DNA from: a virus
Virus record (IMG/VR): IMGVR_UViG_3300002056_000074
DNA: 64,000 bases
Direction: 5' to 3' (one strand)
Position 1 is the stretch's first letter, and each line of letters begins with the position of its first letter. Both the position numbers and the translations under genes were made by a program. Positions 9,958-44,240 of the stretch are shown here, piece by piece. The notes beneath the pieces were generated by a model, which was not told the DNA's origin, made no database searches, and was given only the letters and a program-made list of their open reading frames with translations.

Positions 9958-11619
9958 TTATTTATTATTTTCCATAATAAATCGTTGTTTACCACAGTCC
10001 CATATTCTATAAATTTCATTCCGGAGACAATTTTCATATTCCGTCTCTGTTGGATCAAACTCTTCACCCAATAATATTTCTAATTTCTTTCTACGAAAAT
10101 TGAATTTGTGCATTCGAGTTCGATCATAATAATAAAAGTAATCAGGAGCTAATGTATTATCTAGTATCCAACCAGTTTGTTCATATAAATTACCATCACT
10201 CCATCGATTATCTGCAAAAGATGTGAGTTTATTCCAAAGATTATTATTCTTAAAATACTTCAACAATTTAGAAAATCCCCCGACTACTCTATGAGATGTT
10301 GCATATCTATTCAATACAAAATTACCATTTTTATTATTCGTGAAAATCATACAAGCTACTAAATCACCATCATAATAAAGCCCATAATTGATAGAACTAG
10401 ATCCATCACCTTGAATATGATTATCATCTAAGAAAATTGTTTTATCCTTCTTAGGTACTTCCATAATTTCACATTTTCGAGCATATATTACTGGGCGATC
10501 ATCTTTATTGAGAAGTGATTTTAATTTGTTTTTAACCTGCTCATTTCTTTCCTTCCATTCATCTTCAAATATAGTTATTAATTGAATTCCTTTCTTTTTA
10601 CATTCTTCGTATTTACTATGATGATAATGCCTATATTTTCCAAACTTTTCACTGTGCCAGTAATTTCCACAATATTCAATTGCTAAATTATGAGATGGTA
10701 TGTAAATATCTAATTCTTTTGGTGGGATTATTTTCTTGGAATTTTGAATTGTTTCAATTCCTAATGATGTAATGAAATTATTAAGTATCTCCTCTTCTTT
10801 ATTATTGATAAAACATTTATTACACCCGACTCGCCCAGACAAATGACAATCTGGTGTTTGTTTAAAACTAATATTATGTTCAATACAAAAAATATCAACT
10901 TTTGTTTTCGAATTCTTATATGATTCAGGAGTATATATAAATCTAGTTGAACCATATAATGCATATGAATCACTAACAAATTTATCAAATGATTTAGTCA
11001 AATTTGCTATACTAGATAATCTGGAACATTTTGGACAACCATTACCCCTCATATGATTATTCGGTGTTTGTGAAAATTTTCCATGTATAGGACAAATAAT
11101 ATCTAATTTAATTTTCGCATCAACATATATCGAATCCTCATAACTATAAAAATTATTATGCTCATCATTTGAGCGGACAATAAATCGATTGAGTTTTTGC
11201 TCATTTGTTATTTTATTATATTTTTTCTTACGTCGAATATTACTTGAACATTTACTACAACCATAACCAGCCATATGTGATGATATTCTTTGCTTAAAAC
11301 TCCCATGCTTCGGACATTTAATATTTACATATGATTTGTTCGTTAGTACATCGGATTCACTTATTAAACTATAATCGTATATATTGTTATGAATTTTGTT
11401 AGATGTTTCTATAAACATTGATAGAGTAATAGACTTTCTATTTGTGCATTGTGGGCAATTTTGGCCCGCTAAATGAGCTGATGCACGTTGTTCAAAATCT
11501 CCATGTTTTCTACAGGTGATTATTAATTTTTTTCTACTTGTAGTGTATTCACAATTATCATACAAATATCGATTATTATGAACTTCATTTGCCCGTGTTA
11601 TAAACTCTTGAGTGTTCAT
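9958..11619 (-). CDS. Zn-finger repeat + PD-(D/E)XK nuclease + Mom-like GNAT fusion (Hef-like endonuclease family), copy 1
   Basis: CxxHG...H..G.GCxxC repeats; ELDIYIPSHNLAIEYCGNYWH; SFADNRWSDGNLYEQTGW; YRIWDCGK. Confidence 0.8.
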   Translation of the reverse strand: MNTQEFITRANEVHNNRYLYDNCEYTTSRKKLIITCRKHGDFEQRASAHLAGQNCPQCTNRKSITLSMFIETSNKIHNNIYDYSLISESDVLTNKSYVNIKCPKHGSFKQRISSHMAGYGCSKCSSNIRRKKKYNKITNEQKLNRFIVRSNDEHNNFYSYEDSIYVDAKIKLDIICPIHGKFSQTPNNHMRGNGCPKCSRLSSIANLTKSFDKFVSDSYALYGSTRFIYTPESYKNSKTKVDIFCIEHNISFKQTPDCHLSGRVGCNKCFINNKEEEILNNFITSLGIETIQNSKKIIPPKELDIYIPSHNLAIEYCGNYWHSEKFGKYRHYHHSKYEECKKKGIQLITIFEDEWKERNEQVKNKLKSLLNKDDRPVIYARKCEIMEVPKKDKTIFLDDNHIQGDGSSSINYGLYYDGDLVACMIFTNNKNGNFVLNRYATSHRVVGGFSKLLKYFKNNNLWNKLTSFADNRWSDGNLYEQTGWILDNTLAPDYFYYYDRTRMHKFNFRRKKLEILLGEEFDPTETEYENCLRNEIYRIWDCGKQRFIMENNK

Positions 11620-12417: not shown

Positions 12418-13881
12418 TTACACTTTATCTCCGTAAATATATCTATTTTTCCCACAATCCCATAACCTATAAATCCCAAAATCTAAACAATTTTGGTATT
12501 CAGTCTTATCACTATCAAATGATTCCTGCATTATATTTTGTAACTGGCGTCTTCTAAAATTGAATTTATGATGCACTTTTCCCTTATAAAAATAACTATA
12601 ATCTTCAGGCAATACGCGATCTAATTTCCAACCAGTTTGTTCATATAAATTACCATCACTCCATCGCAAATCAGCAAATGAAATCAACCGATCATACGTA
12701 TAATTATGCTGTACATATTTTAACAATTTACTCAAACCACCAACTACCCGATGGCTCGTCGCATATCGATTAACAATAAAATCATTATCCTTTTTCTTTA
12801 ATCCGACACATGCAACTAACTCATTGTCGTATTGTAGTCCAATATTGATTGATGAATGTCCATCACCTTGAATATGATTATTATTGAAAAATATAGATTT
12901 TTCACCCCTATCAACTATAGTAATAGTTGTTTTGCGAGCAAATACAGTATGTCGATTATCTACACCCACAACTGATCGCAATTTATTTTTAACCAACTCT
13001 TTAGAATCAACCCATTCATTAGAAAATATAGTAATTAGTCTAATTCCCCTATTATTACAATCTTCTAATTTATTTTTGTGATATTTCCGATCTCTTAAAA
13101 ATTTTTCAGTATGCCAATACACTCCACAATACTCTATTGCCAGATTTAATTTAGGTAAATAAATATCAATTTGTTTTGGGGATATTATATCAAAACTCTG
13201 AGAAATGACTTTACCATCATATATACTTTTTATAAATTCCAAAACTTCATTCTCTTCATTAGAAAATGATTTTGAACATTTTGGGCAATTATGCTTATTT
13301 CTCAATAAATCATTAACTGCTGGATTAAAATACTCCCCACATTTTTTACATCCAGTAGATGGCTTATCGAATGATCCTATAAACTCACTAGTCCATTTAT
13401 CAAACATGAAAGTATTGGGTCTGTTCGTCTCAATATTTCTTATAGTATCAATAGTAGATCTTCTAGACTTTGATACCACATTTTTTCTATTACAACTACA
13501 ACCATGTCCCTTTTTATGATTTGATAGTAATTGAGTAAACCATGTATTGCAGGCGTTGCATTTTATATCTACTTTACTGCCATCAGACACATCGTTGGAT
13601 ATCCTAGAATAATCATATCGAAATTTTCCATGTTTTTTAACCGCAATATCGATGTGTTGTTTTCGCGTCTTCTTCTTTTTTTGAGTTCGATTATTTTCGG
13701 CGCAAGTAGGACAACCTCTACCTGATTTATGTGAATTTAATTGTTGAGTAAAATTTCCATGTTCAGGACAAATATTTTTAACAAGATCTTTAGTTGTTAA
13801 TTCCCTTGGCCATAAAGAATAATCATAAAAATTATTATGTTTTTTATGACAGTCTATCTTATGTTGTTCTGGAGTTTTCAT
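12418..13881 (-). CDS. Zn-finger repeat + nuclease + Mom-like GNAT fusion, copy 2
   Basis: Same three-part architecture and motifs as 9958..11619. Confidence 0.8.
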   Translation of the reverse strand: MKTPEQHKIDCHKKHNNFYDYSLWPRELTTKDLVKNICPEHGNFTQQLNSHKSGRGCPTCAENNRTQKKKKTRKQHIDIAVKKHGKFRYDYSRISNDVSDGSKVDIKCNACNTWFTQLLSNHKKGHGCSCNRKNVVSKSRRSTIDTIRNIETNRPNTFMFDKWTSEFIGSFDKPSTGCKKCGEYFNPAVNDLLRNKHNCPKCSKSFSNEENEVLEFIKSIYDGKVISQSFDIISPKQIDIYLPKLNLAIEYCGVYWHTEKFLRDRKYHKNKLEDCNNRGIRLITIFSNEWVDSKELVKNKLRSVVGVDNRHTVFARKTTITIVDRGEKSIFFNNNHIQGDGHSSINIGLQYDNELVACVGLKKKDNDFIVNRYATSHRVVGGLSKLLKYVQHNYTYDRLISFADLRWSDGNLYEQTGWKLDRVLPEDYSYFYKGKVHHKFNFRRRQLQNIMQESFDSDKTEYQNCLDFGIYRLWDCGKNRYIYGDKV

Positions 13882-16452: not shown

Positions 16453-17901
16453 TCAATTGTTATTAATTACGAAACGCAGTTTTCCACAATCCCAAATTCG
16501 ATAGATGTTATTCCGTGAACAATTTTCTTGCTCAGATTCATCTGGATTAAATGCTTCACCTAACATTACTGCAAGTGCCTTGCGCCTAAAATTAAATTTA
16601 TGTTTTCGCTCACCACCATAGAAATAAAAATAATCTGGCCTAAGTTCACTTTCCAAATCCCAACCTGTTTTTTTATATAAATTACCATCACTCCATCGCA
16701 AATCAGCAAATGAAATAATTTGGTTCCACTCATGATTTCGCTGGAAATGTTTAAGTAAGCGACTACTTCCACCGGGAATTTGCTTAGAAGTTGCATATCG
16801 ATTTAAATAATAATCATTATTCTTAATATGCTTAAATGTCATACAGGCAATCAATTCATCTTCATAATATAGCCCATAAGAAAATTTTCCCTGACCATCA
16901 CCCTGAATATGATTTTTATTTAAAAATGTCTTTCGGATTTTATTATTAATTGGCTTAATTTTACATAATCTGGCATATATTTTATCCCTATCGTCAATTT
17001 TAAGAAGTGATTTGAGTTTTGATTTAACTTGGATGTTTCTATCATCCCATTCATCTTCGAAAATAGTGATTAATTGAACACCTTGCTTCTTACACATCTC
17101 ATACTTATTTTTATGATAATGCCTGTCCTTACCATACTGTTCGGTGTGCCAGTAATTACCACAAAATTCAATTGCCAAATTATGGTCTGGAATATAAACA
17201 TCCAACTCGTATGGAGATATTAATAATCTATCAGATTCGATTATACTAACATCGAAGGATTTAATAAAATTAACTAAATCCTTCTCTTTTTTTGATTTTT
17301 TATTCATACACTTAATACACCCAACACCAGATAAATGGGAAGATGCCCGCAATTTAAATATACCGTGGTTTGGGCAGGTAACACTAACAAATTCTCTTGA
17401 ATTGATATATTCCGTTAAAGTATAATCATAAAAGTTATTATGTTTAATGTTTGATGCCTTAACGAATGCCTGTGTGTTACTTTTTGGTATTCCTCTACCC
17501 AATTTAGTTCTTGCTATAATAGAACATTTATTACAACCATGACCATCTCTGTGATCTCTGGGTATTTGTGTGAATCTCCCATGCTGTTTACATTTTATAA
17601 TAACTGGTGTAATGGCATTCTTATACACTACTTCACTATAATCATATACATCATTATGTACTTTTTTGGCCAATTCTATCCACTCTTCAGTAGTTAATTT
17701 TTTAACACCTGCACAGGCAGGACAAGTGGCTGTTAAATTTATATGATTTTTTGCTAGTTGCCAAAAAGATCCATGTACTGGGCAAATAATCTCAATTTTT
17801 TCAGTTGATTTGGTATAAACCGATTTAGAGTAATCATAAAAGTTATTATGCCTTTTATTTGCCTTATCTATCCACTCCTCAGTAGTTAATTTCTTTGTCA
17901 T
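16453..17901 (-). CDS. Zn-finger repeat + nuclease + Mom-like GNAT fusion, copy 3
   Basis: KKLTTEEWI repeats, CPxHG, ELDVYIPDHNLAIEFCG, SFADLRWSDGNLY, YRIWDCGK. Confidence 0.8.
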   Translation of the reverse strand: MTKKLTTEEWIDKANKRHNNFYDYSKSVYTKSTEKIEIICPVHGSFWQLAKNHINLTATCPACAGVKKLTTEEWIELAKKVHNDVYDYSEVVYKNAITPVIIKCKQHGRFTQIPRDHRDGHGCNKCSIIARTKLGRGIPKSNTQAFVKASNIKHNNFYDYTLTEYINSREFVSVTCPNHGIFKLRASSHLSGVGCIKCMNKKSKKEKDLVNFIKSFDVSIIESDRLLISPYELDVYIPDHNLAIEFCGNYWHTEQYGKDRHYHKNKYEMCKKQGVQLITIFEDEWDDRNIQVKSKLKSLLKIDDRDKIYARLCKIKPINNKIRKTFLNKNHIQGDGQGKFSYGLYYEDELIACMTFKHIKNNDYYLNRYATSKQIPGGSSRLLKHFQRNHEWNQIISFADLRWSDGNLYKKTGWDLESELRPDYFYFYGGERKHKFNFRRKALAVMLGEAFNPDESEQENCSRNNIYRIWDCGKLRFVINNN

Positions 17902-23456: not shown

Positions 23457-25097
23457 TTATGTATTTATAATCACATACCGCTTTTTTCCACAATCCCATA
23501 TTCTATAAATTTTATTTCGAAAACAATTTTCATATTCACTTTCTTCGGGATTAAAATCATCACTTAATAATTTTTCTAATTGCTTTCTCCTGAAGTTAAA
23601 TTTATGCACTCTTCGCTTTCCTTGGATATATGAATAATCAGGATTGGAAGTATTATCCAGAGTCCATCCAGTTTTTTCATACAAATTACCATTGCTCCAT
23701 CTAAGATCAGCAAAAGAAATAATTTTTTCCCATTTATTATGTTTCCTGAAATAACTGAGTAATTTGGAAAATCCACCAACAACTCTAGCAGATGATGCAT
23801 ACCTACTAAGTGTATATTCAAATTCAGAATTTTTAACAAAAGTCATTACGGCAATCATATTACCTTGTGTGTCGCTAAGTGCATATTCAATCGAGGTTTT
23901 ACTATCGCCCTGTATATGATTGTTATCCAAAAACAATCTCTTACTTTTCTTATTAGGAATATATACTGTGGTGTTTCTGGCAAATATTGTATTTCGATTA
24001 TCACAACCAAGAAGTGATTTTAATTTATTCTTAACTTGATTTGTCTTAAATTCCCACTCATCTTCAAAAATAGTGATCAATTGGATACCTTGCTCCATAC
24101 AAGCATCATATTTTTCACGATGTTTATTTTTATTCATATCAAATTCTTCTGAGTGCCATTTCAATCCACAAAATTCAATCGCAATATTTTTGCTAGGAAT
24201 TAGTATATCCAATTCTTTTCCATTTAAAACAACTCTATTTGATTGCTCTGCATCATCAACAAATTTAGATACGAATTCAAATACTTCAATTTCAGGCTTG
24301 GATGGTCCTACACCGGCACATTTTTTACAGCCATTATGTTTACCAACGATTGCCCACTCTGCCTTTTGTGTAAATCTTCCATGAATAGAACACTCGATTT
24401 CTATAAATTCATCCATATTGACATATTCAGTAGAAATTAGAGTATTGTTTTGTGAAATATCTTTAATAGCCTTTTCAATCACATCTAAATCTAGTTTCCC
24501 AGTAGGTGAACATTTGGGGCATGATCCGCAATCACTATTCAAATGATTTACCATATTAGTTTCAAATTCACCATGTCCATCTTTTTTGCAAATCAATTTG
24601 ACTCTTTGGGACTTATTTTTATAGTCTTTTATCAGTGAATAATCAAATTGATCACCATGTCTTTTCTTTGACTCTAAAATAACATCATCCATTGTATAAT
24701 TATATTTTCCCGAACATTTAGAACATCCAGAGTTCATAAAAATGTGGCTTTTTGCTAGAACTTTATGTTCTCCATGAACTGGGCACAAAATAGTAATCAT
24801 TGATTTAGTAGATTTATATTCTGCGTGAATATACGGATATTCATATTGTCCATGAACAACGTTTGCCTTGGATAGAAAATCATCCACGGACATTTTCTTA
24901 GCGCCATTGCCATTGCATTTTGGGCACCCTTGGCCACACTTATGTGCATTTGGTGTTTGGAAGAATTCGCCATGAATGCTACATATTATTTTTCCAAGCA
25001 CTTTACTATTAACATATTTAAATTCTGATAGATCATATCGCCCATTATGGGCCTCTACCATTTCTTTGATATGTTCTTCTTTAGTCTTTCTAGCCAT
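23457..25097 (-). CDS. Zn-finger repeat + nuclease + Mom-like GNAT fusion, copy 4
   Basis: Same architecture; ELDILIPSKNIAIEFCG, SFADLRWSNGNLY, YRIWDCGK. Confidence 0.8.
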   Translation of the reverse strand: MARKTKEEHIKEMVEAHNGRYDLSEFKYVNSKVLGKIICSIHGEFFQTPNAHKCGQGCPKCNGNGAKKMSVDDFLSKANVVHGQYEYPYIHAEYKSTKSMITILCPVHGEHKVLAKSHIFMNSGCSKCSGKYNYTMDDVILESKKRHGDQFDYSLIKDYKNKSQRVKLICKKDGHGEFETNMVNHLNSDCGSCPKCSPTGKLDLDVIEKAIKDISQNNTLISTEYVNMDEFIEIECSIHGRFTQKAEWAIVGKHNGCKKCAGVGPSKPEIEVFEFVSKFVDDAEQSNRVVLNGKELDILIPSKNIAIEFCGLKWHSEEFDMNKNKHREKYDACMEQGIQLITIFEDEWEFKTNQVKNKLKSLLGCDNRNTIFARNTTVYIPNKKSKRLFLDNNHIQGDSKTSIEYALSDTQGNMIAVMTFVKNSEFEYTLSRYASSARVVGGFSKLLSYFRKHNKWEKIISFADLRWSNGNLYEKTGWTLDNTSNPDYSYIQGKRRVHKFNFRRKQLEKLLSDDFNPEESEYENCFRNKIYRIWDCGKKRYVIINT

Positions 25098-28674: not shown

Positions 28675-28808
28675 TCACACTAACTCAGAAATTGGTTGTG
28701 ATATATATTTATTGATCAGCTGTGGATTAGTTCACATAAAATTAATTCACTAAATGTTAATTATAATGTATAATACTGTTACTAAAACAATAAAACAGAT
28801 TGATCCCA

Positions 28809-30551
28809 ATGCCTAAGAAATTAACACAAGAAGAATATATTCAGCGATGTGAAGAACTTTATGATAATGGAGAGTTTGATCATTCGTCAGTGGTTTATAC
28901 AAAAGCTCAGGAATTTATATATCCTGTCTGCACTTCCTGTGGTAATAAACAAAAAAGAAAAGCATATAGTCACATTCAGAAAAAATTGAAATGTGGGGAT
29001 TGTGCTGGTAATAAAAAATTAACAGTTGAAGACATAAAAAAGTCTGTCTTTGATATATATGACTCAAATATCACACTTAAATCCTTCACGTCTCATGGCA
29101 ATAAAAGTAAATTTGTAGCAACGTGCAAAAAACATGGAGATTTTAATACCCAATATGTTTTGCTTGTGGGTAGAGAGTCTGGCTGTCCGAAATGTCGTAA
29201 GGAAATTAAACATTCTATCAATGATGAAATTAAATTTCAAAATGAATTAGAATTAGAAAAAATGAAAGAACAAGAGAGGAGTACTCAAAGAGTAGTCACT
29301 CAACGTAAAAACTTAGAAAAGTTTCTAATTAAAGCAAGGGCTACATATCCTGATCGTGATGATATTGAAGTATTGAATTATGTTAATATGAAAACAACCG
29401 CCACATTTGTTTGCCCCAATCACGGTGAATATCAACAAAAACCTAACAATTATCTAAAACATCAAGGCTGTGCTAAATGCAGACCATTAACTAAGTCGCA
29501 AGTTCCGATGACTCTTAATGAATTTATCAGTCGATCTAAAAAAATGCACGGTGATCTATATGAATATGATAAAGCTGTTTATAAAGGATCAACAGAAGCA
29601 ATAACATTATTTTGCAAAAAACATAAAGAATATTTTGATGTTAATGCGGGCAAACATATCGGAAATGGTACTAGAGCTGGGTGCCAAAAGTGTTCAAACA
29701 TATCTCAGACATCAAATGGTGAACTTTCACTAGTCAAATGGTTAAAATCATTAGATATTAAGGTGATTACAAGTAACTATAATATTGTACCACCTAAAGA
29801 AATTGATATATTCCTACCTGATTATAATATAGCCATTGAATTCAATGGGTTATATTGGCACAGTGAAATTAAAGGGAAGTATAGGTACTATCATAAGGAG
29901 AAATATGATGGTTGTAAGGCCCAAGATATACAATTGCTGACTATATTTGAAGATGAATGGGAGACTAGACAAACTCAAGTTAAAAATAAGATTAGACATC
30001 TATTAAATAAATCAAAAAATGATAGCGTATATGGAAGAAAATGTATTATTGATATAGTTGATAGTACATCTAAGAAATCATTTTTCGATGAACATCATAT
30101 TCAGGGCGATGGTCCATCATCGATTAATATTGGTTTATATTTTGATGATAAGTTGGTGGCCTGCATGGGCTTTGTTGCCAATCCTAATAATTCATTTACA
30201 TTAAATCGCTATGCTACATCAACATCAGTTGTTGGTGGGTTTAGTAAACTACTCAAGTATTTCAAACAAAATTATAATTGGACTGAAATAGTATCATTTG
30301 CTGATTGTAGATGGAGTGATGGTGGTTTATATGAGAATAATGGATGGAAGCTAGATAAAATATTAGAGCCAGATTATTCATACCTCTATAGAAATAAAAG
30401 AATGCATAAATTTAATTTCAGAAGAAAGCAACTTGAAAATATGTTGGGTGACGACTTCAATATAGAAGAAAGTGAATATGAAAATTGTACCAGAAATAAA
30501 ATTTATCGTATTTGGGATTGTGGTAAACAACGATATATCATTAACAAATAA
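28809..30551 (+). CDS. Zn-finger repeat + nuclease + Mom-like GNAT fusion, copy 5
   Basis: ATG at 28809 (MPKKLTQEEYI); EIDIFLPDYNIAIEFNGLYWH; SFADCRWSDGGLY; YRIWDCGK. Confidence 0.8.
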   Translation: MPKKLTQEEYIQRCEELYDNGEFDHSSVVYTKAQEFIYPVCTSCGNKQKRKAYSHIQKKLKCGDCAGNKKLTVEDIKKSVFDIYDSNITLKSFTSHGNKSKFVATCKKHGDFNTQYVLLVGRESGCPKCRKEIKHSINDEIKFQNELELEKMKEQERSTQRVVTQRKNLEKFLIKARATYPDRDDIEVLNYVNMKTTATFVCPNHGEYQQKPNNYLKHQGCAKCRPLTKSQVPMTLNEFISRSKKMHGDLYEYDKAVYKGSTEAITLFCKKHKEYFDVNAGKHIGNGTRAGCQKCSNISQTSNGELSLVKWLKSLDIKVITSNYNIVPPKEIDIFLPDYNIAIEFNGLYWHSEIKGKYRYYHKEKYDGCKAQDIQLLTIFEDEWETRQTQVKNKIRHLLNKSKNDSVYGRKCIIDIVDSTSKKSFFDEHHIQGDGPSSINIGLYFDDKLVACMGFVANPNNSFTLNRYATSTSVVGGFSKLLKYFKQNYNWTEIVSFADCRWSDGGLYENNGWKLDKILEPDYSYLYRNKRMHKFNFRRKQLENMLGDDFNIEESEYENCTRNKIYRIWDCGKQRYIINK

Positions 30552-30553
30552 AG

Positions 30554-30581
30554 AAGTGTAAATAAAAAAGTGTAAATAAAA
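30554..30581 (+). repeat. Tandem 14-bp direct repeat, each copy with TAAATA
   Basis: aagtgtaaataaaa x2 directly upstream of the HNH gene. Confidence 0.7.
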
Positions 30582-31297
30582 TGTGTAATATTAAAAATCT
30601 TCTTGAAATAGAAAATAAAATTAAGATAGTGAGTGATTATACGTCATCTAATAATCATCATGATATGTGCTGCATGATTTGTGCACATGAATGGCGGGCC
30701 ACTCCAAAATCAAAACGCCAGACATACAAAAAATGGGGGGTTGGTGGGTGCCCTGAATGTAATAAAAATTCAAAAGAACTTAAAATTGTCAATAAGTTAA
30801 TTAAACGGTTGAAACAAAGGAATATGGAATATATAGGAACTGTTAATTTTATAAAATCTGGAAATGAAAAAAAGCGATTGGTAAAAGTTAAAAATTTGTC
30901 ATGTGGACATATTTTTGATACGAGATCAGATAATTTACTTAAACATAATATCAATTGTCCAATTTGTAACACTAAAAATAAGCGTAATAATTTTATTACG
31001 TGGCAGGAAGAACGAAGTGAGGAATATAAGAAAACAGCCAATGAATGGGATTTATATAGGCATGAGGTCTATGCCAAAACTCGGCAAACATATAACCAAT
31101 TTAAACATATAATAAATCCAGATAATCTTCCTAGAGGTTTGGCAGGAACAGAGGGAGCATATCAACTAGATCATATAAAATCTATTCGATTCTGTTTTGA
31201 TAATAATATTTCAATTTCAGAATGTTCTTCATTGGATAATCTGCAAATGCTAACATGGGAAGAAAATCTATCTAACGGTAAAAAAGTTAAGAAATAA
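30581..31297 (+). CDS. Zn-ribbon + HNH-type endonuclease
   Basis: CxxC pairs; YQLDHIKS...NLQMLTWEEN C-terminal HNH-like motif. Confidence 0.75.
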   Translation: MCNIKNLLEIENKIKIVSDYTSSNNHHDMCCMICAHEWRATPKSKRQTYKKWGVGGCPECNKNSKELKIVNKLIKRLKQRNMEYIGTVNFIKSGNEKKRLVKVKNLSCGHIFDTRSDNLLKHNINCPICNTKNKRNNFITWQEERSEEYKKTANEWDLYRHEVYAKTRQTYNQFKHIINPDNLPRGLAGTEGAYQLDHIKSIRFCFDNNISISECSSLDNLQMLTWEENLSNGKKVKK

Positions 31298-41316: not shown

Positions 41317-42930
41317 TCACAATGTTTGATATCCATCCTTCCACCACTGAGGCATGATATCTTTATTTTGTGAATATAGGTATCCAAAAGATTCATCAAG
41401 TATATAGACTCTACCTTCATCATCATCAGCCCTGACAACTCGACCACCGCCCTGAATGATCTCAATGAGAGCTTGACGTTGATACCACTCAGGAGATAGT
41501 TCCATGCGCTTCTTGATCCATGCATCACCCATGTTTCCAAAAGGAACTTTACAGAAGATAGCAAATCGGCCAAGATCATACTTCAAATCAAGACCTTCTG
41601 TGCTTGATGGAGATATCAAAATAGCAGGTGTTGTTGATTCATCCATAAATTCAGCGATTGCTTGATTTCGTGATACGCCTGATTCTGGGCCATGCTCAAT
41701 AATTCTGTGACCTTTGCAGCTCAAATTGTCAACCAACCAATCAGCGATTGCAAAATTTCCGGTATGAATAATACCATTTTCACCTTCATGCATTTCTGCC
41801 AAGGTCTCAATAGTTTTTAACATTTGAGTTTTTTGATTGTTATCTCGCCACTTATAATTCATTTTCATTTGTGGCATATAAACTACCGGTCGATTATCAG
41901 GATCAAATTCAGATTCAATTGAGATATAAGCAGCCTCATTTGGATCAATACCTAAATCTGCGCACGTTGCTTCCTTGCCCAAAAACGTGGAAGACATAAA
42001 AAGAAATTGATCAGCCATTGGTTCAATAAGTCGCTTGAATGATCTATGGGCACTGATTCGTTTGATTTGAATACCAAAATCGGAATCGATTAATACATAA
42101 TCATCTATGACATCAGATATATCAATACGCAAAAATTCCTCACAGATATTCAATTGACTTTCAACATGTTGAAGTTCACGCACCTTCTTTATTTCTTGGG
42201 CATTGTCAGATGGATTATGTTCTCTAGTTGATTCGATTTCGGTTAACAGAATATCATAGGCTTCTATTAGTGCTGGATTGTATACATCACGAATGAAATT
42301 AACAACAATTTCTAAATCACGTTGTTTAGGAAGTTCAATGTAATGATCAGAGCACCATTTCTTAGTAATATGAATCGAATCAAATCCACATAAAATAGAA
42401 TCAAGTGAATGTGCCTCATCACAAGTCATTAAATTTCTTTTCAAGATGCGATCATCTTTTTTGAACATTGATGTATATGACCAAACAGATAATCCCAATG
42501 CATAGTTCATTACTGTGTTATTGGATTTCTTGGCTGTCTCTCTAGCATCTGCATAGGGGCATGATATACATCTTGGCTTTATGATAGAACCTGTTGCACA
42601 ACTAACACCACCCTTGGATTGACATTTATAATGCGACTTACCATAAAGTGATGATAGATTTATCTTCTTGTCTGATAAAAAATCATTTTCGTATTGTTTT
42701 TGGAGAATAGTCTGAGGTGTTAATATAAACGAGTTATTTCCCATATAACGAGAGAATGTCATAGACACAGCAGATTTTCCGCACCCAACGGGAGCTTCAA
42801 CAAATAAGTATTTTTTGCGCTTATTCTTCTTCAAAAAATTCAACGCAATACATTGATTGATTCTGGGTTCATGTTGTCCTTCAAATGCCCAAAATTTTCT
42901 CATTTCTTTATCTAATTCAATATCAGACAT
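41317..42930 (-). CDS. DinG/Rad3-family DEAH helicase
   Basis: EAPVGCGKS, DEAH, Cys cluster, SST, EGLD, KVPF, QGGGRVVR..DD.G...ILD. Confidence 0.9.
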   Translation of the reverse strand: MSDIELDKEMRKFWAFEGQHEPRINQCIALNFLKKNKRKKYLFVEAPVGCGKSAVSMTFSRYMGNNSFILTPQTILQKQYENDFLSDKKINLSSLYGKSHYKCQSKGGVSCATGSIIKPRCISCPYADARETAKKSNNTVMNYALGLSVWSYTSMFKKDDRILKRNLMTCDEAHSLDSILCGFDSIHITKKWCSDHYIELPKQRDLEIVVNFIRDVYNPALIEAYDILLTEIESTREHNPSDNAQEIKKVRELQHVESQLNICEEFLRIDISDVIDDYVLIDSDFGIQIKRISAHRSFKRLIEPMADQFLFMSSTFLGKEATCADLGIDPNEAAYISIESEFDPDNRPVVYMPQMKMNYKWRDNNQKTQMLKTIETLAEMHEGENGIIHTGNFAIADWLVDNLSCKGHRIIEHGPESGVSRNQAIAEFMDESTTPAILISPSSTEGLDLKYDLGRFAIFCKVPFGNMGDAWIKKRMELSPEWYQRQALIEIIQGGGRVVRADDDEGRVYILDESFGYLYSQNKDIMPQWWKDGYQTL

Positions 42931-42958: not shown

Positions 42959-42987
42959 ATTATACATGAAATAGAAAGATTGATCAA
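42959..42987 (-). promoter_or_regulatory. sigma70-type promoter of the helicase gene
   Basis: TTGATC-17 bp-TATAAT on -. Confidence 0.65.
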
Positions 42988-42988
42988 T

Positions 42989-43037
42989 ACGGAACATGAT
43001 ATTAAAAACGGAACATGATATTAAAAACGGAACATGA
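42989..43037. repeat. 19-bp tandem repeat (about 2.6 copies)
   Basis: acggaacatgatattaaaa at 42989 and 43008, partial third copy at 43027. Confidence 0.9.
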
Positions 43038-43089
43038 CTTGCACCTGAAATTGTGATGTTGATGTTTCTTGTGAGTTTCACGAACAAGT

Positions 43090-43138
43090 ACATTGCTTTT
43101 ATGAGTTGGACATATCAAACATTGCTTTTATGAGTTGG
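43090..43138. repeat. 20-bp direct repeat x2
   Basis: acattgcttttatgagttgg at 43090 and 43119. Confidence 0.9.
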
Positions 43139-43204
43139 GCTGCGCTTGCAAATCTTTCAAAACGTCTAAAAATTGTATTTTTATAGTTTCTTTTGTAGTT
43201 TTAA

Positions 43205-43564
43205 TAGTTTTGTCGCTACCTCCACCTCCGCGAAAATTTTTTATACACGCTACGCCGATCTGCATACCCGTCTTACGTGTTTTCATACCAACCTGAGTCT
43301 CCCGGTCTATACCCCACTTCGTAGCCACTTCGTGTCTCGGTATCAATGCTTAGGTGTATCAATGTGTATAATTCTCTTCTATACTCAAGAACAACACGGA
43401 AACCTGCCAACAACTAGCCACGTATTGCTCAAAGCCCTCTGCCAGCTTTCGTGGGTGGGTTTCACTGCCTATTATCAGCCTCCGCAGCGGAGTTCAATTT
43501 TATGTCTGTTGGCTGAGGTATAATCGAACGTGACTTGATATGGCATCACGCCTAACCCCAATTG
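43205..43564 (-). ncRNA. Candidate structured non-coding RNA (about 350 nt)
   Basis: GC-rich island with no credible ORF, directly after a near-consensus promoter; several helices and GNRA-type loops on -. Confidence 0.5.
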
Positions 43565-43570
43565 ATGTCG

Positions 43571-43599
43571 ATTAAATCACATAAAAATAATCATGTCAA
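43571..43599 (-). promoter_or_regulatory. Near-consensus sigma70 promoter pointing into the non-coding region
   Basis: TTGACA (43599-43594), 17 bp, TGn extension + TTTAAT (43576-43571). Confidence 0.75.
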
Positions 43600-44165
43600 C
43601 ACTTTTTTTCTATAATTTTCATATTTTCTACAAAATCGTTAATGTCATGATCTTCACGACATACACAATCCTTGAGTTGTTCTATCCTCCACATAGCAAT
43701 ATGATAACTATCACAGAGGTCATATAAGCCCTTAGACTTGAGGTAGCCAGCAGCTAGGAACTGTTCGGCTATATCGTCTGGCACAGCCGCTAACATATCT
43801 TGTTTCTTTGCCTTGCCACTACCTGTAGCAAATTTTTTGAGTTGTGTGGGTGCAACTTTAACAATCCCATCAATACCATGTTTTTCTAATAGTTTGACTT
43901 CTAATGTGTATAAAAGACCACCCAGTAATCGTGTAGCATTTCCTATACTTCCAAAACTTAATGCCTCGCATACAATTTCATCACAACCATGTTGTTCAAA
44001 TAACTCAATGATGCGGGTAGTCAATATAGACATTCTAACAACTTCACTACCATCATGTTTTGATGTTTTAATACATTCAAAATGAATCATGGATGTATTT
44101 TCGACAATGACGATACCGGAACAAGTCATACTTTGGTCTAAACATAATATTTTTTTTCTTCTCAT
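43596..44165 (-). CDS. ruvC: RuvC-like Holliday junction resolvase
   Basis: ILCLDQSMTCSG, EAL, PTQLKKFATGSG.A.K..M, DL.DS motifs; ATG at 44165. Confidence 0.85.
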   Translation of the reverse strand: MRRKKILCLDQSMTCSGIVIVENTSMIHFECIKTSKHDGSEVVRMSILTTRIIELFEQHGCDEIVCEALSFGSIGNATRLLGGLLYTLEVKLLEKHGIDGIVKVAPTQLKKFATGSGKAKKQDMLAAVPDDIAEQFLAAGYLKSKGLYDLCDSYHIAMWRIEQLKDCVCREDHDINDFVENMKIIEKKC

Positions 44166-44196
44166 GTCTGTACTTATATGAGAAAAAAACAAGCAC

Positions 44197-44240
44197 GTTA
44201 CACTAAGTAACACTAGTTTTTTAGTGTAACACTAGTGTTA
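44197..44240. repeat. Nested inverted repeats and palindrome
   Basis: gttacactaa (44197-44206) / ttagtgtaac (44221-44230), plus palindrome taacactagtgtta (44227-44240). Confidence 0.75.

Follow-up and report, generated by a model that had tools for sequence, protein, structure and literature searches.

Replication of ColE1-type plasmids starts from an origin at which RNA II serves as the primer precursor (PMC5043065, PMC3167613). Origins of phage T4 combine a promoter with an AT-rich element; UvsW closes them, and iterons are present in oriE (PMC3016281). A hybrid G-quadruplex R-loop mechanism has been described at mitochondrial CSB II (PMC3488243), and E. coli DinG unwinds R-loops (PMC10530614). 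As DNA, GCGNAGC and GCGNNAGC form mini-hairpins of exceptional stability, whereas the RNA counterpart that was tested is far less stable. The DNA mini-hairpins are found at the G4 origin and at RSF1010 ssiA, which are primase sites (PMC13037366).

The literature searched gave no described origin for any XacN1-like jumbo phage. The DNA analysed here (the window, 64,000 nucleotides) is from an uncultured, T4-like jumbo phage of the XacN1-like kind, with a longest contig of 281 kb. On its minus strand the gene order is sigma-like factor, nuclease pair, RuvC, a gap of 665 nt, and DinG. The gene for the RuvC-family Holliday junction resolvase (43596-44213, PF02075) is given a later start by gene callers, which leaves 189 aa. 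The DinG/Rad3-family helicase (41317-42930, 537 aa) shows 44% identity to the XacN1 helicase, within a range of 42-44% for Xanthomonas phages XacN1 and Xoo-sp13 and Stenotrophomonas phages CM1 and RAS14.

We propose, with about even confidence, that the interval between the two genes is a transcription-primed (R-loop) replication origin, with the RNA as a structured primer precursor and DinG as the R-loop unwinder. This reading is favoured because promoter, folded RNA, G-tract and single-stranded-DNA mini-hairpin follow one another in the order seen at the ColE1 origin. RNA polymerase would start near 43564, and the first ~300 nt of the transcript would fold compactly with long-range pairs, as covariation in sister families indicates; for the window sequence the support is only suggestive. 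By analogy with ColE1, T4 oriF and mitochondrial CSB II, the transcript would stay hybridised to the template along the G-run and the purine-rich, A-rich tract that follows. The displaced strand could then fold GC-GNA-GC mini-hairpins marking a primase or helicase loading site. The RNA 3′ end, trimmed probably by host RNase H, would prime leading-strand synthesis, and the neighbouring DinG would remove the R-loop, as UvsW does in T4.

The promoter-like site lies on the minus strand at 43571-43599. Its elements, a -35 TTGACA, a spacing of 17 nt, an extended TGn and a non-canonical -10 TTTAAT with a predicted +1 near 43564, are present where an earlier note on this DNA had placed them, and the -35 hexamer overlaps the RuvC stop codon. 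A consensus promoter scan misses the site because its -10 is without A-11. This architecture has only one instance in the 64 kb and recurs in identical form 5′ of the RNA in two relatives, L177 and L179; the site is therefore probably real. In the closest homolog of the RNA, L005, it is not present in that form. Of the proposal that host sigma70 polymerase expresses the RNA, the promoter-led unit stands, while the use of sigma70 is presumed, the -10 being non-canonical.

Downstream of this site a structured RNA of ~300 nt is predicted at 43260-43563 on the minus strand, possibly extending to ~43210 (nhmmer E 2e-29 against L005). Among all loci fetched it is conserved only in L005/L006, which represent one close relative whose DinG is 71% identical to that of the window. 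The local alignment score between window and L005 is 132 in the RNA region, against a shuffle maximum of 30; the spacer behind the RNA scores 19 and is unalignable, and the four-fold sites of DinG are 38% identical. Both candidate ORFs, of 72 and 116 aa, hold stops in L005, which rules out protein coding of the interval, in agreement with the view that it has no credible ORF. Thus ~350 nt are under non-coding selection, since the RNA aligns where the spacer does not, the ORFs are broken and the silent sites of DinG are 38% identical. The region is also raised in GC, as had been noticed: at 47.7% it lies above the 35.2% of the whole window and ranks in the top 0.8% among 350-nt windows.

Searches of the RNA families gave no known relative. 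The Rfam comparison that had been suggested yielded no match for the window even at E up to 10, and Rfam and ARAGORN found none of the tRNA, tmRNA or RNase P landmarks whose lack had been remarked on; ARAGORN finds no tRNA anywhere in the window. For 20 relatives Rfam gave no match, and for 16 relatives none at E up to 1. Comparison of the window RNA with annotated phages by blastn returned nothing meaningful, pattern scans of viral and genome collections for further homologs returned chance matches only, and no further RNA was found in the shorter DinG fragments and fragment P0260. After all searches the family consists of two distinct sequences. The window RNA is a real element that is absent from Rfam and without description in the searched literature.

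The earlier note had drawn a specific fold, and most of that structure model did not survive; a conserved, non-coding, promoter-led unit outside Rfam is supported. All of the complementary segments it named are in place in the window. In L005, the hairpin 43550-43545/43534-43529 holds with two compensatory changes and one compatible change, and the 3′ hairpin 43233-43230/43216-43213 holds as well. The helices 43516-43511/43480-43475 and 43343-43339/43313-43309 are broken there, as is the first of two tandem mini-hairpins; the helix at 43492-43484 cannot form its six pairs, which would leave a 1-nt loop, and is partly broken in L005. Of the two long-range pairings said to cross, 43398-43393/43281-43276 is broken in L005 but 43371-43364/43248-43241 keeps 6 of 8 pairs. 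All three loops read as GNRA lose that character in L005, and the region in the window yielded no GNRA hairpin closed by C-G and having at least 2 pairs. The folding energy of the window RNA is no better than that of shuffles (z = +0.60). Helices kept in both sequences number 7, against 8.1 in a column-shuffle null, with no excess, and at least one helix with two compensatory changes arises in 23% of column shuffles. Covariation, expected among ruvC-dinG intergenic relatives, is not significant in the window RNA (n = 2 sequences), but is strong in the sister families described below.

Other partners can be proposed for the same segments. The 5′ domain (43511-43557) would consist of an outer helix, 43557-43552 with 43517-43511, enclosing the hairpin 43550-43545/43534-43529; the outer helix has a 1-nt bulge and, as judged by eye, one G-U to A-U change. 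A long-range loop pairing of 43542-43537 with 43289-43284 is suggested by the two sequences, U-G in the window becoming C-G in L005 (256-261/510-515). Likewise, 43399-43393, with one bulged G, may pair with the 3′ G-run at 43272-43267, two U-G pairs being C-G in L005 (408-414/526-531); this helix is proposed to replace the pseudoknot 43398-43393/43281-43276. Both sequences can also form 43527-43523/43259-43255 and 43487-43481/43234-43228. Several of the five alternative pairings show U-G to C-G changes between window and L005, two of the five having been judged at motif level, where the automatic alignment is shifted by one column. With two sequences, none of the alternatives reaches significance. 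A pseudoknotted fold, with partners differing from those first named, stays plausible because the alternative pairings cross one another.

The unit does not end at 43205, the limit first given to it: an A-rich tract, mini-hairpins and direct repeats carry it on to ~42960. On the minus strand, two DNA-type mini-hairpins with C-GAA-G triloops stand in tandem at 43314-43334; L005 keeps their loop sequences and not their stems. A GC-GTA-GC mini-hairpin at 43249-43255 (minus strand) is the only GCGNAGCG in the 64-kb window, and its L005 counterpart is GC-GAA-GC, in which the N of the loop alone differs. A second mini-hairpin of this kind, GC-GCA-GC, occurs at 43139-43145 on the same strand, ~125 nt past the G-run. 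With four mini-hairpins in 190 nt, 43331-43139 is the densest such cluster of the window. The C-GAA-G mini-hairpins and the final ~55 nt of the RNA as first proposed (43260-43205) look more like single-stranded-DNA signals. The A-rich, purine-rich tract at 43160-43240 (minus strand; A 40-47%, A+T 67%) is a candidate unwinding element, a weak one in a genome of 65% A+T. The repeat search found two identical 20-nt direct repeats with a spacing of 29 (43090-43138) and three 19-nt tandem direct repeats (42986-43042), which are iteron-like or slippage repeats. In relatives, exact tandem repeats occur at 0.33 per kb in the 300 nt before DinG against 0.03 inside it. Short tandem repeats flank the RNA on both sides (L179:3570-3610 compared with L180:3500-3575, L180:4370-4420, L005:198-232), and their copy number differs between near-identical strains.

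Most of ~120 distinct DinG loci have a non-coding gap of 300-1200 nt 5′ of DinG. The gaps fall into the g1, g2 and g4 families, the XacN1 group, a group ending in G5-A-G3 and the window family, which are mutually unalignable except for a 3′ module common to g1 and g2. These two families cover dozens of loci without an Rfam match, their RNA lying 100-600 nt 5′ of DinG (g1 in L019, L034, L108, L122, L026, L032, L098 and L100; g2 in L024, L107, L115, L027, L091, L018 and L022). In g2, 13 of 27 pairs show a compensatory change. In the g1/g2 3′ module, a hairpin and a pseudoknot, 86% of cells are paired against 36-54% when the structure is slid, the former figure being inflated by related sequences and a hand-drawn structure. 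The sister RNAs at the DinG locus are, on these comparisons of sequence, covarying and pseudoknotted; they have GNRA loops with a variable N and frequent G-U pairs.

The g1/g2 3′ module ends in ACGGGG, and the G-run of the window at 43272-43267 may be the positional counterpart of that tract. A model of this module, R2, found held-out relatives at 21-56 bits; on the window, with filters off, its best score was 2 bits, and L005 was also not found. There was no cross-detection between R2 and R1, the model of the window RNA. Because the relatives' families and the window RNA do not detect each other, the window RNA can be taken as a positional counterpart of the relatives' RNAs rather than a proven homolog.

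The closest RuvC relatives carry the g4 family (L011:3950-4270, L177:1470-1790, L179:3620-3950; also L093). Its RNA has a promoter of the window type in L177 and L179 and a sequence unalignable to the window RNA. PTH2 and formyltransferase genes adjoin the RNA at some g4 loci. An unannotated, conserved, structured RNA of the XacN1 group (L001:5370-5870, L002:5368-5860, L003:5313-5860; ~189.8-190.3 kb in XacN1) is present in the cultured phages XacN1, Xoo-sp13, RAS14 and CM1. Its helices show compensatory changes, and its C6 tract is the complement of a G6 tract ~370 nt downstream; ORF313 of XacN1, which overlaps its far end, is probably spurious. A further subfamily has an A-tract followed by G5-A-G3-A-G2 ~220-520 nt 5′ of DinG (L046, L047, L055, L058, L059, L061, L063, L065, L148, L161, L169, L171). 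Gaps without a recognisable long RNA were also seen in close relatives (L012:4521-5000, the same as L094, and L182:5446-6124), that of L182 with many GCGATAGCG-type repeats. A conserved block further upstream in relatives was considered as RNA and turned out to be a small FmdB-like zinc-ribbon ORF of ~65-75 aa just 5′ of the RNA (L004:4288-4509, with equivalents in L019, L024, L107 and L121), missed at a cut-off of 100 aa. The orientation of the RNA element is always the same, and it is single-copy where tested. Unalignable families kept in one orientation and single copy in the gap before DinG suit a cis-acting site.

The part behind the RNA was compared across relatives by motif, the loci being unalignable to the window RNA and kinship being ignored in the statistics. 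On the RNA strand, the final 300 nt 5′ of DinG have 1.7-2.3 runs of at least 5 G per kb, compared with 0.14-0.3 for distant or coding bins. On the same strand and in the same interval GCGNAGCG reaches 0.5-0.66 per kb, compared with 0.01-0.03, and most copies lie 50-130 nt beyond the G-tract. Both enrichments are strand-biased. C-GNA-G triloops rise from 0.6 per kb, the density both of genes and of the RNA part, to 5.6 per kb downstream of the G-tract, where GC-GNA-GC mini-hairpins are 9-fold enriched on the RNA strand. The ratio of GNRA to non-GNRA loops shifts from 16:25 upstream of the G-tract to 2:91 downstream (Fisher p 5e-8, for loci that are not independent). The GCGNAGCG motifs cap long, nearly perfect AT-rich hairpins, and GAGCGNAGCGAG itself is found in several relatives. 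At other places in XacN1 and Xoo-sp13, dense clusters of mini-hairpins were examined as comparable signals and lie inside coding repeats.

The locus resembles ColE1/pMB1 in having a promoter-like site, a long, probably structured non-coding RNA, a G-tract and then, 50-150 nt downstream, GAGCGNAGCGAG-type mini-hairpins on the RNA-sense strand. In a natural ColE1-type plasmid that has the RNA I antisense, a G6 tract on the RNA II strand is followed ~155 nt later by GAGCGCAGCGAG. This downstream motif is the same as the GAGCGNAGCGAG of several relatives, and from its position we take it to be a primosome site (n'-pas/ssiA). A G-tract lies near the RNA 3′ end, in RNA sense, in most relatives. Mini-hairpins like primosome sites are present, by sequence and position, on the strand that an R-loop would displace. 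However, Rfam RNAI gave no match in window or relatives, where the control plasmid matched at 87 bits, and there is no sequence similarity; the RNA is ~300 nt against 550, no antisense control is seen, the G-run of the window is short, and the site belongs to a jumbo phage and adjoins a DinG helicase. By these membership tests the window RNA is outside ColE1 RNA II and also outside GOLLD/ROOL, and it may function like ColE1 RNA II.

The locus and T4 oriF, oriG and oriE have in common a T4-like phage, an AT-rich tract behind the promoter, direct repeats, and a helicase capable of unwinding R-loops (PMC3016281). The T4 origins differ in being ~100 bp, multiple and fired from MotA middle promoters, with no specific sequence or folded RNA needed; the window has one site, a long conserved structured RNA, and DinG. 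Its -35 hexamer is of sigma70 type, and no MotA-dependent middle promoter was seen at the site. With CSB II the locus shares a G-tract where the RNA ends, placed on the non-template strand and taking the form G5-A-Gn in one subfamily of relatives; their G-quadruplex-like G5-A-G3-A-G2 tract resembles the CSB II sequence. Polymerase and system are different, however, and the window is without a G5 tract.

Several results count against the origin reading. Near the RNA 3′ end, the G-runs of the window and of L005 do not exceed G3-G4, with no run of G5 or longer. XacN1, Xoo-sp13 and RAS14 have the RNA and G-tract, and the mini-hairpin motif is absent at the XacN1-group locus. Several families offer the G-tract a pairing partner within the RNA, and this fits an RNA that is complete and free. 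No change of GC skew of the replichore type was found at the site in XacN1 and Xoo-sp13; recombination-dependent replication would blur such a change. No PF00075 RNase H is encoded in five related genomes.

The main rival reading, a strong one though less likely than not, is that the RNA is a free-standing, trans-acting, ornate non-coding RNA, a scaffold, decoy or ribozyme in the manner of GOLLD, ROOL or OLE. The hairpins behind it would then be terminators or 3′ protectors and its place beside DinG inherited synteny. Phages are known to carry large ornate RNAs (PMC5737381, PMC12286853). The strong covariation and pseudoknots of the sister families (13 of 27 pairs; 86% against 36-54%), their G-U pairs and GNRA loops, the promoter of its own beside a separately promoted DinG, and the internal pairing of the G-tract all agree with it. 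GOLLD, ROOL and OLE have long-range pairings, pseudoknots and no known function, and GOLLD and ROOL are phage-associated (PMC5737381, PMC12286853), but the window RNA is about half as long, without adjoining tRNAs, and fixed beside DinG. Their covariance models gave no match, and against their ~580-800 nt (ROOL 581 nt) and tRNA neighbourhood stand ~300-350 nt here and a window without tRNA. A free RNA leaves unexplained both the several unalignable RNAs at one site and the strand-specific hairpins with DNA-type triloops, and no intrinsic terminator was found on the minus strand after the window RNA.

It is quite unlikely that the functional molecule is single-stranded DNA, either a structured single-strand origin or a recombination or packaging signal for which transcription merely opens the duplex. 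The only C-G-closed G..A loops of the window are DNA-type triloops, no GNRA loop is conserved there, and RuvC and DinG flank the site. Covariation does not tell single-stranded DNA from RNA, and the plasmid motifs ARRPOF and GEBRO are equally ambiguous (PMC5737381). With these and PAGEV, plasmid replication-associated motifs of 223-349 nt, the locus shares a similar size, raised GC, a link to replication and the RNA-or-ssDNA ambiguity (PMC5737381); it differs in being a phage locus without an Rfam match. However, the conserved helices hold many G-U/G-T pairs, the sister families use GNRA loops with a variable N, and triloop enrichment is limited to the part downstream of the G-tract.

A cis-regulatory 5′ leader, such as a riboswitch or attenuator controlling DinG expression, is highly unlikely, although the RNA is always upstream of DinG on the same strand. 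DinG has its own sigma70-type promoter at 42959-42987 (minus strand; 10/12 consensus matches), ~30 nt upstream of the gene, so that the RNA need not be its leader. XacN1 relatives likewise have a proximal DinG promoter, and in relatives a variable spacer of 100-700 nt or a whole PTH2 gene intervenes. A highly diverged RNase P, tmRNA, SRP, intron relic or HDV-like ribozyme is equally improbable in spite of the multi-pseudoknot topology and the translation-related PTH2 and formyltransferase genes near some relatives, since the Rfam and ARAGORN searches were negative and inspection found no RNase P CR-I/CR-V order, tmRNA ends or HDV helix order; the topologies of RNase P, tmRNA, the group I core and the HDV/theta and pistol ribozymes, compared by eye, did not fit.

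The R-loop origin reading may extend to the clade. Tentatively, and with less than even confidence, XacN1-like jumbo phages would begin replication at one origin only, with an RNA rich in elaborate pseudoknots as the primer. This RNA would have diverged or been replaced into unalignable families, with the G-tract, the single-stranded-DNA mini-hairpin loading signals and the adjacent DinG switch retained. If true, this would give a function to a large class of orphan phage RNA, and a tailed phage would be shown to have a primer system like that of ColE1 or of mitochondria. To our knowledge, most large phage RNAs are without a known job, and the locus is a testable candidate both for the XacN1-like origin and for the job of one of them. 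The cultured phages XacN1, Xoo-sp13, RAS14 and CM1 carry the counterpart at the same position. Should the origin reading fail, new families of ~300-nt pseudoknotted RNA remain for structural work and for Rfam.

In L181 (4668-5903) an IS605-type TnpB gene lies directly behind RuvC, where the window has the RNA promoter. Several phage DinG homologs with an intein/homing endonuclease insertion near the N-terminus were found (L011:5001-7649, P0007; P0017, P0042, P0102). In the window, many free-standing ORFs amid structural genes (1404-2162, 9958-11619, 12418-13881, 16453-17901, 23457-25097 and 28800-31297) look like homing endonucleases, as judged from their first residues only, which have Cys-rich or repeated N-termini.
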